DNA from: a virus | DNA length: 64,000 bases | Reading direction: 5' to 3' (one strand) | Virus record (IMG/VR): IMGVR_UViG_3300031721_000685 | Location: 11,792 to 75,791 of that record | Shown here: positions 11,554 through 15,468 of the stretch, one piece after another | Position numbering within the stretch: position 1 is the stretch's first letter | How the letters are laid out: every line of letters starts with the position of its first letter | Notes under the pieces: model-generated | Told to the model about the DNA's origin: nothing | Databases searched by the model: none | The model's input: the letters and a program-made list of their open reading frames with translations, nothing else | Made by a program: the position numbers and the translations under genes

Positions 11554-12033
11554 ATGGCCGAAGTAGAAATTGCTGGAATAAACCTCAAAGGGGGCAAAAT
11601 CATGGTCCTCTTTACAGTTCTATCTACTCTCGGTGGTGGGCTGTGGGGCGGCTTCGAGTTTTATTCAGACTATAGAGCGATGAAAGAAGTTGTTGAGAAC
11701 ATCGACATTCAGGAAATCAAAGCAGGCAATGCTCTTGTGATTACCAAGTTAGATGAAGCAATCGATTACACCAGAGATATTAAACAGGGACTCAAAGCCG
11801 ATATCATTCGTACAGAGAAAATAACAGACGATACGAGCCGTCGTATGAAAGACCTTGAAAGAGGTATCGATGTTCGTATGAGAGAATTGTCAAAGCTTTC
11901 TCGTGAGTCTGAAAAGGATGTTAGAAATACAATGCGTGAAACAGAAGAACGCATAGACCTCAAGATGGAAAAGCTGGATACTAGTCTGAGAGAGTCGCTT
12001 CAAGAAGCACTTGATAATCCTCTAACAAAATAA
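11554..12033 (+). CDS. Membrane-anchored coiled-coil protein
   Basis: AGGAG RBS; N-terminal TM segment IMVLFTVLSTLGGGLWGGF; long charged heptad region. Confidence 0.7.
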   Translation: MAEVEIAGINLKGGKIMVLFTVLSTLGGGLWGGFEFYSDYRAMKEVVENIDIQEIKAGNALVITKLDEAIDYTRDIKQGLKADIIRTEKITDDTSRRMKDLERGIDVRMRELSKLSRESEKDVRNTMRETEERIDLKMEKLDTSLRESLQEALDNPLTK

Positions 12034-12039
12034 ACATTT

Positions 12040-12528
12040 CTAATTGACATATATTCCTTGACGATTAAAATTATTCATAATGAATTCTTTTGCTAATGGA
12101 CCTTGCAAGGCATATGCTTCTGTTTCCCACGGCTCTTTTTTAGAGAATCTCCTGTATTTGCCATCCTTGCATCTCCAGCTATGAGTGCTTACCATACGTT
12201 TAGTTGCATTTTGCATAACATGAACCATTTCATGACAAACGGTAGAAATGAATGCATCAACGCCATCATCAATCCCTTCTATAATTCCATCACGAGATAA
12301 TCGATTATCTATTTCAATAACATATGATTTATAACCAACATCTTTATAGCAAAACCCATATGCATTCTCTTTTAAAGTGTTTCGGATTATGCATTGAATA
12401 TTTAAATTTCGATGCCGTGATAATAATTTCTTAACACAAAAATCCATAACATTTTCAGCAAGAATTCGGTCTTCTTTGATGCCACCTCTTGTTTCTATAA
12501 TAATCATCGTATTAACAGAAAGCAACAC
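12040..12528 (-). CDS. HExxH zinc metallopeptidase-like protein (SprT-like)
   Basis: TVCHEMVHVMQ and EPWETEAY. The true start is probably MIIIETRGG. Confidence 0.7.
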   Translation of the reverse strand: MLLSVNTMIIIETRGGIKEDRILAENVMDFCVKKLLSRHRNLNIQCIIRNTLKENAYGFCYKDVGYKSYVIEIDNRLSRDGIIEGIDDGVDAFISTVCHEMVHVMQNATKRMVSTHSWRCKDGKYRRFSKKEPWETEAYALQGPLAKEFIMNNFNRQGIYVN

Positions 12529-12659
12529 AACAAAAGAATAAGAATATAAACTATTTCTATAACCATCATTACTCCCACGGAAACTATAGAATACATACCT
12601 GTTGGAAAATAAAGCTGATAGAATGAGCTATTAAGAAAGAGATTAATTAAATATTTCAT
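12504..12659 (-). CDS. Possible small hydrophobic leaderless protein
   Basis: ATG about 7 nt downstream of a TATAAT box; hydrophobic 51-aa product. Weak support. Confidence 0.3.
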   Translation of the reverse strand: MKYLINLFLNSSFYQLYFPTGMYSIVSVGVMMVIEIVYILILLLCCFLLIR

Positions 12660-12666
12660 ATAAGCT

Positions 12667-12694
12667 ATTATACAGCATATGCGAGAAATGTCAA
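12667..12694 (-). promoter_or_regulatory. Sigma70-type early promoter
   Basis: TTGACA-16bp-TATAAT with an A/T-rich UP-like tract upstream. Confidence 0.7.
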
Positions 12695-12755
12695 CCCAAA
12701 ACACGATAAAAATGAAAAATAATTCAAAAAAGTTTCGTTTTAAATACATTTTTTG

Positions 12756-12763
12756 TATAAATA
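12756..12763 (+). promoter_or_regulatory. T4-type late promoter
   Basis: Exact TATAAATA. Confidence 0.65.
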
Positions 12764-12767
12764 GAAC

Positions 12768-12929
12768 ACTGGGTGCGTGTTAGTGTATTCAAAGGAGTAC
12801 AAGAGGCAAGTGTTAGGATCATATCAATCCAAAGCAAGGAAAAGTCGAAGTCACACTAAGGTGTCGCTGGGGTTGCGTTCGACCACGCTGATAGGTAAAT
12901 AAAACCGCTTCTTCGAGGCGGTTTTTTTT
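12768..12929 (+). ncRNA. Candidate structured small RNA (about 160 nt)
   Basis: Bounded by a late promoter and a terminator, with no ORF. Pairings: GCGTG/CACGC, GTCGAA/TTCGAC, TTAGTGT/ACACTAA, GTATTC/GAGTAC, GGAT/ATCC. Confidence 0.5.
12901..12929. terminator. Intrinsic terminator, probably bidirectional
   Basis: AAAACCGCTTC-TTC-GAGGCGGTTTTTTTT; also lies just past the gp41 stop on the minus strand. Confidence 0.8.
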
Positions 12930-14403: not shown

Positions 14404-15468
14404 CTACCCGTTTGCTTCAGCAAAAACATCCTCTTCTTCTGGTGCGAACATCGAGTTTTCTCCAATAGTGTAACGACTCTTAATATACTCTGAAAAGTCG
14501 GTGGTTGTAAACATATTTGTCCAAAATTTTCCATTATCTTGGATTTCTTTTGCTCGCATCTTGTCGCCAACGAGTTCGCCTGTTTCACGATCTACGAGTT
14601 GATACCAACCGTTTGAAGGCTTCGCTAGATAGCTCGCTTCAAGAGCAAGAGCCATCAAACCAGACCACTTATTAATACCACCATTCCATGTAACTGAAAT
14701 TGGAATCTTTGACTTCTCCTTGATGAATCGAGATTTTTCAATGTTAATGATGAAATTATAACCAGCAATATCAGTGCCATCTTTCTCTTGTTGGCGACCA
14801 ATAATCCAAATAGAATCTGCCGAGTAATAGATGCCTGTACCACCAGATACAACATCTTTAGAATACATTTCTTGCGTTTTGTAAGTATGATTAACAGCAA
14901 TCAATGGAATATCTTTGAGCGTAAGATGTGGTGTTACCATACGAAACAAAGACTTCATCTGCTTTGCACGAGACATATCTGCAACAGACTTGCCATCCAT
15001 AGCGTCATCAACTTCTTTCTTAGATGCTAGATTGCCCACAGAATCGATGACGATACACACACGGTCACCTCTATCAATCCCGTCAAGTTGCTTCATAATA
15101 TCAAACTTTAGTTGCTCAACATCCATAATAGGAGTATGAACAACACGATTCATATCAATATCAAAAGATTCGAAGTAGTTCTGTGGTGTGCCGAACTCAG
15201 AGTCATAGAACAACACAACAGCATCATCATATTTCTTTAGATATGCACTCGCCATTAGTAGTGAGAATGCAGTTTTGAAGTGCTTAGATGGTCCTGCAAG
15301 CACCGTAAGCCCAGGCATCAATCCGCCATCAATCCGACCAGATAGTGCGACGTTAACCATAGGTACCTGTGTTGGCACCATTTCTTTCTTACCATATACT
15401 TTAGAGTTGGCAAGCGTAGCAGTAAGCTTAACTGTACTATTCTTAGTCAATTTATCAAGTAGGCTCAT
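14404..15468 (-). CDS. uvsX: RecA-like recombinase UvsX
   Basis: AGPSKHFKT, FYDSEFG, IDSVGNLASKKE, VSGGTG. Confidence 0.95.
   Translation of the reverse strand: MSLLDKLTKNSTVKLTATLANSKVYGKKEMVPTQVPMVNVALSGRIDGGLMPGLTVLAGPSKHFKTAFSLLMASAYLKKYDDAVVLFYDSEFGTPQNYFESFDIDMNRVVHTPIMDVEQLKFDIMKQLDGIDRGDRVCIVIDSVGNLASKKEVDDAMDGKSVADMSRAKQMKSLFRMVTPHLTLKDIPLIAVNHTYKTQEMYSKDVVSGGTGIYYSADSIWIIGRQQEKDGTDIAGYNFIINIEKSRFIKEKSKIPISVTWNGGINKWSGLMALALEASYLAKPSNGWYQLVDRETGELVGDKMRAKEIQDNGKFWTNMFTTTDFSEYIKSRYTIGENSMFAPEEEDVFAEANG

Follow-up and report, generated by a model that had tools for sequence, protein, structure and literature searches.

The stretch of DNA considered here, hereafter the window, comprises 64,000 nucleotides (nt) of viral sequence, positions 11,792 to 75,791 of IMG/VR record IMGVR_UViG_3300031721_000685. 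The record is a 75.8-kb contig with an estimated completeness of 42%. Its source is a distant, uncultured, marine T4-like phage, and the best GenBank matches to the gp41 protein of the window are only ~62% identical. Next to the gp41 replicative helicase gene, on the opposite strand and convergent with it, lies a short transcription unit that is the subject of this report. We consider it likely that positions 12764 to 12905 form a stand-alone gene for a structured noncoding RNA (ncRNA), driven by a late promoter of its own and ended by an intrinsic terminator. This RNA belongs, as a divergent copy in inverted orientation, to a large family of RNAs carried by uncultured aquatic T4-like phages, for which Rfam has no match.

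The late transcription unit beside gp41

An earlier, sequence-only reading of the window had described an exact late promoter and a strong terminator around a GC-richer stretch, and this description was confirmed. The T4-type late promoter core, TATAAATA, is present in 17 exact copies across the window, compared with 5.5 expected, and the copy in front of the RNA is invariant in every close relative of the window RNA. The G+C content between promoter and terminator (positions 12768 to 12900) is 0.459, compared with 0.275 in the left flank, 0.399 in the right flank, and 0.394 in the whole window. Read on the minus strand, the terminator hairpin also ends gp41, and its stem differs among close relatives while the RNA core stays constant. 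No co-directional gene follows the terminator in the window, the next gene being gp41 on the opposite strand. The same reading had stated that the unit contains no open reading frame (ORF), which was inexact: ORFs of 41 and 28 codons exist, but we judged both to be noncoding for reasons given below. The positions of all features are listed in Table 1.

R2, a covariance model of the family described below, matched positions 12763 to 12905 with 77.5 bits (E 4.7e-17), and no second copy was found in the window or elsewhere in the 75.8-kb record; the window sequence is part of the R2 seed, and its closest relatives and an independently gathered set score similarly.

Close relatives were gathered through gp41 and exact sequence patterns. 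The same promoter-RNA-terminator unit was found in nine IMG/VR contigs, the only contigs there that exact 19-mers matched, and in twelve further full-length metagenome contigs. A metagenome scan with 18-mers gave 14 true matches, all near-identical, and 66 chance matches inside GC-rich bacterial genes. When 16 distinct contigs of the commonest type were compared, 2 sites varied in the RNA body over its initial ~127 nt, counted from GGGTGCG. Variable sites per 30 nt numbered 3 to 9 in the upstream gene for a 159-amino-acid (aa) protein (~6 being typical, or ~19% of sites), 9 in the promoter stretch, and 17 immediately beyond the terminator. The promoter and the terminator bound this island of conservation.

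Table 1. Features of the RNA unit, its fold, and the neighboring genes. Positions are those of the window unless a locus is named.
Feature	Position	Strand	Remarks
T4-type late promoter core TATAAATA	12756-12763	plus	exact match
Probable transcription start	12767-12770	plus	inferred from spacing after TATAAATA
RNA body	12764-12905	plus	~140 nt, ~160 nt including terminator; R2 covariance model match
Intrinsic terminator, bidirectional	12901-12929	plus	11-bp stem 12901-12925, then eight T (run to 12929)
P1 closing helix	GCGUG 12775-12779 / CACGC 12884-12888	plus	minimum-free-energy (MFE) fold and family covariation
P2 hairpin, UGUAUUC/GAGUACA, loop AAAG	12784-12801	plus	MFE fold; family pairs covary
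Conserved junction strand AGAGGCAAG (family AGNGGCANG)	12802-12810	plus	invariant bases in alignment
P3 variable hairpin	12811-12836	plus	predicted fold; inner stem GGAU 12816-19 / AUCC 12827-30
Conserved junction strand AGGAAAA (family GGAANA, into GU of P4)	12837-12843	plus	GGAA.AGU invariant in alignment A4
P4 helix	GUCGAA 12844-12849 / UUCGAC 12878-12883	plus	3' strand runs directly into P1; covaries
P4a hairpin ACAC-UAAG-GUGU	12853-12864	plus	insertion, window's subfamily only
P5 hairpin CGC-UGGGGUU-GCG	12865-12877	plus	invariant 7-nt loop; family alignment
41-codon GTG ORF	12777-12902	plus	judged noncoding; a 28-codon ORF also present
gp41 replicative helicase gene, 471 aa	12945-14360	minus	up to 62% identity to T4-like phage gp41/DnaB-like helicases
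UvsX gene	14404-15468	minus
Insertion ORF, 162 aa	12040-12528	minus	HEMVH metalloprotease-like motif; weak SprT-like match; PHROG 10499, E 1.8e-15
Insertion ORF, 51 aa	12504-12660	minus	possible membrane peptide
Perfect TTGACA-16-TATAAT promoter	12694-12667	minus	within insertion
dCMP/cytidine-deaminase-like gene, 144 aa	L009:5600-6034	plus	PF00383, E 5.8e-7; absent from window and L013
60-70-aa ORF between gp41 and RNA	L009:5416-5616, L206:4367-4567, L028:1183-1392	plus, minus, plus	plus 76 loci L379-L458
Late genes after RNA	L209:6391-10056, L202:1068-3562, L206:286-4227, L220:1581-3547	minus, minus, minus, plus

Fold and covariation of the RNA family

The predicted fold of the RNA is a four-way junction in which helix P1 closes the ends, P2 and P3 are variable hairpins, and P4 runs into P1 and carries P5. 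P1, P2, P4, and P5 all form in the window RNA at the positions seen in the family. P1, with P4 stacked on it, had been proposed by the sequence-only reading, as had two hairpins flanking AAGAGGCAAG; all of these were found in the MFE fold, which lengthens P1 of the window by CUG 12769-71 / UAG 12892-94, and the family homologs covary on both P1 and P4. The window also carries the invariant features of the family, namely the P5 loop (12868-74), the AGNGGCANG strand (12802-10), and the GGAANAGU strand (12838-45).

The pseudoknot that the same reading had suggested, TTAGTGT (12780-86) with ACACTAA (12853-59), did not survive comparison, as all of the closest relatives lose three of the seven pairs and show no compensation. 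The local hairpin that it had offered as the alternative, now called P4a, appears in the MFE fold and is kept: in the closest relatives it reads GCCC-AUAU-GGGC, with two compensatory pairs and 100% pairing. P4a marks a subfamily consisting of the window, the L204/L230 loci, and L236. Different stems occupy this position in L236 and L204, and most family members have AGAAAA instead. The subfamily also has a C-G pair next to the P5 loop, a compensatory change relative to the G-C pair found elsewhere. Among the close relatives the window copy is the only diverged one, its ~20 differences lying in P3, P4a, and the 3' tail, and the register of P3 shifts by one pair in the closest relatives.

The family was found by scanning loci from gp41 regions for a late promoter followed by a terminator with no gene in between. 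A first model, R1, which was built on near-identical relatives and was too narrow, had found no match in 100 loci of more distant relatives. The scan for such orphan units gave a distant homolog in L028, a locus with a gp41 69% identical to that of the window. Three helices differ between the two RNAs by compensatory changes: P1 is GCGUG/CACGC in the window and ACAUG/CAUGU in L028, P4 is GUCGAA/UUCGAC and GUCUGG/CCAGAC, respectively, and P5 is CGC-UGGGGUU-GCG and CGG-UGGGGUU-CCG, respectively. A degenerate pattern derived from this comparison retrieved 62 IMG/VR loci, of which 57 were true units and 5 were GC-rich chance matches. Because this set had been selected through the P5 loop itself, we built a second, independent set from loci gathered through a 60- to 70-aa ORF that precedes the RNA, leaving the RNA motif unused. 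R2 detected the RNA directly downstream of the ORF and on the same strand in 76 of these 80 loci, and at least two of the four negative loci are cut contigs.

In total, the family comprises 79 distinct full-length sequences, all from contigs of uncultured T4-like phages; the homologs that had been anticipated downstream of gene 41 in such phages therefore exist in large numbers. An (A/C)TAAATA late promoter lies just upstream of the RNA in 77 of the 79 members, and a terminator follows within 10 to 25 nt in every one. A second late promoter was found after the terminator in 65 members. Each record has one copy of the RNA, and the same holds for a complete, terminally repeated genome of 167.8 kb.

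Helices were defined with RNAalifold and with covariance-model alignments (the family alignments are designated A4, A5, and A7, the last being the independent set), and the two approaches agreed on P1, P2, P4, and P5. In A5, 94% of cells were paired, compared with 28 to 44% in slid controls; in A7, the figures were 97.8% and 27 to 49%. Compensatory changes were seen at 13 of 20 pairs in A5 and at 16 of 20 in A7. Cells with double changes numbered 130 in A5 (9 to 23 in slid controls) and 244 in A7 (7 to 36), and none of 500 shuffles of either alignment reached the observed covariation score.

Variation within the individual helices followed the same pattern. Five of the six family pairs of P1 have compensatory changes, and by inspection P1 extends to 10 to 15 pairs in many members. 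Its 3' strand reads CACGU in the closest relatives, a G-C pair becoming G-U, and CAUAU or CAUGU in distant members, where the 5' strand matches. All five modelled pairs of P2 show compensatory changes. P4 occurs as GUCUGG/CCAGAC, GUCGGG/CCCGAC, and GUUGAG/CUCAAC, with 100% of cells paired and four of its six pairs compensatory. A P3 hairpin of differing sequence and length was predicted in almost every member. The outer pair of P5 covaries among C-G, U-A, A-U, and G-C. G-U pairs are many and occur on the transcribed strand only, which indicates an RNA structure rather than a DNA structure.

Set against these covarying helices are ~35 invariant positions, spread over the junctions. The P5 loop, UGGGGUU, is identical in 56 of 56 distinct sequences of the independent set, where the two inner closing pairs are G-C, so that the hairpin GG-UGGGGUU-CC is invariant in a set free of the selection bias. 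The two P1 pairs and the three P4 pairs nearest the junction are also invariant, as are the junction strands AGNGGCANG and GGAANAGU. Within AGNGGCANG, the G, the GGC, and the last G are constant across 31 aligned members and are kept in the independent set.

Around P5, most members share an invariant 11-mer, GGUGGGGUUCC, and the window has GCUGGGGUUGC there (12868-12878). GGUGGGGUUCC equals what we take to be the first 11 bases of Escherichia coli tRNA-Tyr. The resemblance is probably a coincidence, and no tRNA-like fold was called. As the sequence-only reading had maintained, the RNA is not a tRNA: ARAGORN found no tRNA or transfer-messenger RNA (tmRNA) gene in the window, and no tRNA or tmRNA family of Rfam matched, even at E values up to 10.

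Searches for the RNA in known genomes and families were negative. R2 found no copy in T4, Methylophilales phage Melnitz-3, Synechococcus phage ACG-2014f, or Stenotrophomonas phage DLP_6. A blastn search of 50,697 GenBank phage records with the window copy and two other subtypes gave no match, and a motif scan of bacteria and archaea returned 80 loci among the matches listed, all of which proved to be chance matches when checked with R2. At gathering thresholds, Rfam 15, whose families include manA, wcaG, PhotoRC, glnA, pRNA, Y RNA, 6S RNA, and the known ribozymes and riboswitches, gave no match in the window and only an unrelated tRNA in 15 family loci; at E values up to 10, the window and other members gave weak matches far below threshold, mostly at the terminator end. 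The covarying homologs and the absence of an Rfam match support the earlier suggestion that the unit is a stand-alone late unit encoding a novel structured ncRNA. Novelty is stated here relative to Rfam; the 8,495 unnamed RNA candidates reported from IMG/VR (PMC10690425), which count among the nearest counterparts, may include this family.

Neighboring genes and metatranscriptomes

In most members of the family, UvsX, gp41, the small 60- to 70-aa ORF, the RNA, and late genes follow one another in this order on a single strand. The small ORF frequently extends into the promoter of the RNA or into its first bases, and no terminator lies between them; we infer that early transcription of the gp41 operon necessarily continues into the RNA and stops at its terminator. 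In every case the RNA lies where two transcription units meet. It is inverted and convergent on gp41 in the window, L230, and L236, and the window has no 60- to 70-aa ORF beside it; the usual position is typical of the family but does not define it.

The closest relatives of the window have the RNA directly after a late operon of exported proteins that ends in the 159-aa ORF, and they carry a 67-aa ORF and a dCMP-deaminase-like gene between the RNA terminator and gp41. The window differs from all of its close relatives in a 680-bp insertion (12034-12715), which contains two minus-strand ORFs and a perfect minus-strand promoter. Because this insertion separates the RNA from the upstream operon, the promoter of the RNA is the only evident source of its transcription in the window. 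A more distant relative, L043, has a late unit of only ~35 nt without an RNA body (L043:3815-3865, plus strand), in which a terminator hairpin follows TATAAATA almost at once. This short unit lies downstream of the exported-protein operon and may represent an empty cassette or else encode a mini-transcript.

The 60- to 70-aa protein has the conserved motif ..ET.T.Q.I..F...EAK..MRHLNLGGGFDGWTP.F. Its ORF was absent from 16 gp41 loci lacking the RNA, from three cultured phages, and from the 75.8 kb of the window's record. The protein had no match in Pfam or PHROGs. Its AlphaFold model shows three strands followed by a helix, with a predicted local distance difference test (pLDDT) score of 77, and searches with the model (Foldseek and VIA-align) gave no convincing match in the PDB (best Z score, 4.8). 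Comparison with T4 Dmd, which is encoded at the same position after gene 41, gave an hhalign probability of 0.3%. At most family loci, the late gene products encoded after the RNA start with M-x-x-F-x-x-F/Y-L-x-E, resembling the capsid-targeting leaders of T4. These products include a HAD-phosphatase-like protein, a protein of 366 to 440 aa, and DUF6267 fused to a cytidylyltransferase-like domain.

The family occurs in marine metatranscriptomes. The commonest variant of the RNA was present in ten runs recorded as RNA, and four runs were compared with the relative L009. Contigs of 180, 232, and 211 nt, from three studies, were centered on the RNA unit. Two such contigs from different studies end at L009 positions 6201 and 6202, which correspond to window positions 12767 and 12768, 4 to 5 nt after TATAAATA; these ends are a weak hint of the transcription start. 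The data are assembled contigs from runs chosen for containing the RNA, and they show presence in RNA libraries rather than levels; for the same reason, the L009 stretches without contig cover in X1 and X7 are uninformative. At L009:6554-6667, where the 159-aa ORF encodes its N-terminal membrane segment, contig depth rises ~15-fold with many loose ends, probably through cross-mapping of this conserved segment from numerous other phages.

Possible roles and known phage RNAs

On the basis of the conservation pattern, we tentatively propose a trans-acting role in which the RNA, as a folded particle, works through a protein or a large complex as its partner, although we put this at somewhat short of an even chance. 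The invariant junction and the UGGGGUU loop of P5 would form a docking surface for a conserved partner, which could be a protein, possibly the co-inherited 60- to 70-aa protein, or a conserved host machine; the RNA would act neither as an antisense regulator nor as an mRNA. Most phages would produce it early too, as the 3' end of the uvsX-gp41 transcript, and then late from its own promoter. More specifically, and with greater doubt, the RNA may be the core of a new ribonucleoprotein of T4-like phages or a catalytic or aptamer RNA, perhaps packaged. Such a ribonucleoprotein might work with the 60- to 70-aa protein or with the phosphatase-, ligase-, and nucleotidyltransferase-like enzymes encoded downstream, whose leaders suggest targeting to the capsid.

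Several observations weigh against this proposal. The folding energy of the RNA is ordinary (z score of -0.53 without the terminator, and of -0.5 and -0.6 for two variants), so that a single sequence proves nothing by itself and the evidence rests on comparison with relatives. Neither the window nor L236 has the small ORF next to the RNA, and it is also missing from the 75.8-kb record, which represents 42% of the genome; the linkage of RNA and ORF in other phages may be mere shared descent. Structure searches revealed no recognizable RNA-binding fold in the 60- to 70-aa protein. Among the metatranscriptome contigs, one crosses the promoter, another crosses the terminator, and a 738-nt contig spans everything, and such contigs cannot separate RNA from carried-over DNA.

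Four other accounts of the unit, and a fifth at the level of DNA, have to be weighed against the proposed trans-acting particle. The pattern of covarying helices around an invariant junction, with invariant junction-proximal pairs and one invariant distal loop, is shared with small ribozymes and riboswitch aptamers, and the terminator within 10 to 25 nt would suit this reading too. The RNA could be an aptamer that senses a metabolite or signal, or a self-cleaving ribozyme, with the junction as its pocket or active site, but we consider this unlikely: no co-directional gene lies downstream in the window or in L230 and L236, downstream genes in 65 of 79 members have a late promoter of their own beyond the terminator and so do not rely on read-through, and no known riboswitch or ribozyme model matched, even at E values up to 10. 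The first two of these facts also argue against a cis-regulatory leader. Somewhat less probable still is a base-pairing small RNA that would use its exposed invariant segment, chiefly UGGGGUU, to pair with host or phage mRNA, with tRNA, or with rRNA. The RNA matches bacterial trans-acting small RNAs in size, is preceded by its own promoter, and ends at a terminator that has a U tail; its 7-nt loop sits invariant on a GC clamp. In the 75.8-kb record, however, complementary 10- to 12-mers are fewer than for shuffled versions of the RNA; AACCCCA occurs 6 times where 2.8 are expected, but one occurrence is the opposite strand of the RNA itself and 7 of 100 shuffles reach 6. The ~35 invariant positions across the junctions, moreover, exceed the needs of a seed. 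The lack of excess complementarity in the record argues against an antisense regulator of the phage's own genes. A sponge or decoy for ribosome-binding (Shine-Dalgarno) sites, prompted by the AAGGAG and GAGG motifs, is also unlikely, since the AAGGAG in the P2 loop is not conserved.

It is improbable that the unit is a cis-acting 3'-end module in which a structured cap and a terminator stabilize or insulate incoming transcripts without any role in trans. The transcripts concerned would come from the early uvsX-gp41 operon in most phages and, in the relatives of the window, from the late operon for envelope proteins. Such a module would explain why the RNA always lies at a transcription unit boundary, why the small ORF of most members runs straight into it with no intervening terminator, why the relatives of the window have it directly after the 159-aa ORF, and why the terminator of the window is bidirectional. 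It would not explain why 77 of 79 members keep a late promoter for the RNA, why the core is kept in the window even though an opposite-strand insertion isolates the RNA there, or why the terminator changes and the core hardly at all; moreover, stabilizing a 3' end would require far less than a four-way junction whose strands are invariant. A DNA-level element, such as a replication origin, a recombination cassette, or a protein-binding site, seems very improbable. The region is one of gene gain, loss, and inversion beside replication genes, but the element is single copy, unlike shuffling cassettes, its compensatory changes include many G-U pairs, which the opposite strand would show as A-C mismatches, promoter and terminator always bracket the RNA on the same strand, even when inverted, and the sequence is present in metatranscriptomes. 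Least credible of all is a small protein gene, encoding a basic peptide from the 41-codon GTG ORF or one of 30 codons from the GTG at 12810. The ORF does fill the promoter-terminator unit, it remains open in the closest relatives, and an AAGGAG lies 11 nt before GTG 12810. Nonetheless, the differences in the ORF fall 8/4/5 on codon positions 1/2/3, with ~9 replacements and 3 or 4 silent changes (manual count), and the replacements are mostly radical and clustered in a hairpin that keeps pairing. The 16 distinct relatives have no silent change at all, compared with variation at ~19% of sites in the neighboring gene. Many family members lack a stop-free run of more than 25 codons in any frame, no frame is shared, the AAGGAG is not conserved in the family, and neither Pfam nor PHROGs gave a match.

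A single-copy RNA gene has been kept across a large group of abundant aquatic T4-like phages, with ~35 positions frozen while neighboring proteins diverge to ~40 to 60% identity. Such constraint implies an important, specific interaction in infection, for which the GG-UGGGGUU-CC hairpin and the linkage to a small protein offer concrete experimental handles. The family merits an Rfam entry, which would allow its annotation in phage genomes.

To our knowledge, apart from tRNAs, only a few ncRNAs are known in T4-type phages, despite intense study. No test applied here showed kinship between the family and any of the known RNAs compared with it. T4 rnaC and rnaD (species 1 and 2) are small stable ncRNAs whose function is still open; their genes belong to the tRNA cluster, and the RNAs are released from tRNA precursor transcripts by cleavage. 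The RNA described here differs from them in that the window has no tRNA genes, the RNA has its own late promoter, and R2 finds nothing in T4. The pRNA of phage phi29 (RF00044) is a part of a late protein machine, and its ends pair into a helix under a branched domain with exposed loops. The family RNA is likewise a phage RNA of similar size with paired ends beneath a branched domain. Unlike phi29 pRNA, it has no Rfam match, its P2 and P3 loops vary, and none of them complements UGGGGUU in a way that would allow ring formation; we also know of no RNA required for packaging of the T4 type. Y RNAs of the YrlA type have a long stem formed by their ends under a multibranched, tRNA-like module and are often encoded beside RNA repair genes. 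The family RNA shares the end stem under branches, and in most members HAD-phosphatase-like and DUF6267/nucleotidyltransferase-like genes follow it, but it has no Rfam match and no UUCGA-type T-loop arm, and no Ro/TROVE gene occurs in the stretches examined.

The manA, wcaG, and PhotoRC-II motifs are orphan RNAs of T4-like cyanophages, of which manA and wcaG lie in 5' untranslated regions and appear to be cis-regulatory (Weinberg et al. 2010, PMC2864571). Like these three motifs, the family RNA was found by comparing sequences of uncultured aquatic phages, belongs to T4-like phages, and combines covarying helices with conserved junctions. Unlike manA and wcaG, it is matched by no Rfam model, and it forms an independent unit that has a late promoter and a terminator to itself.

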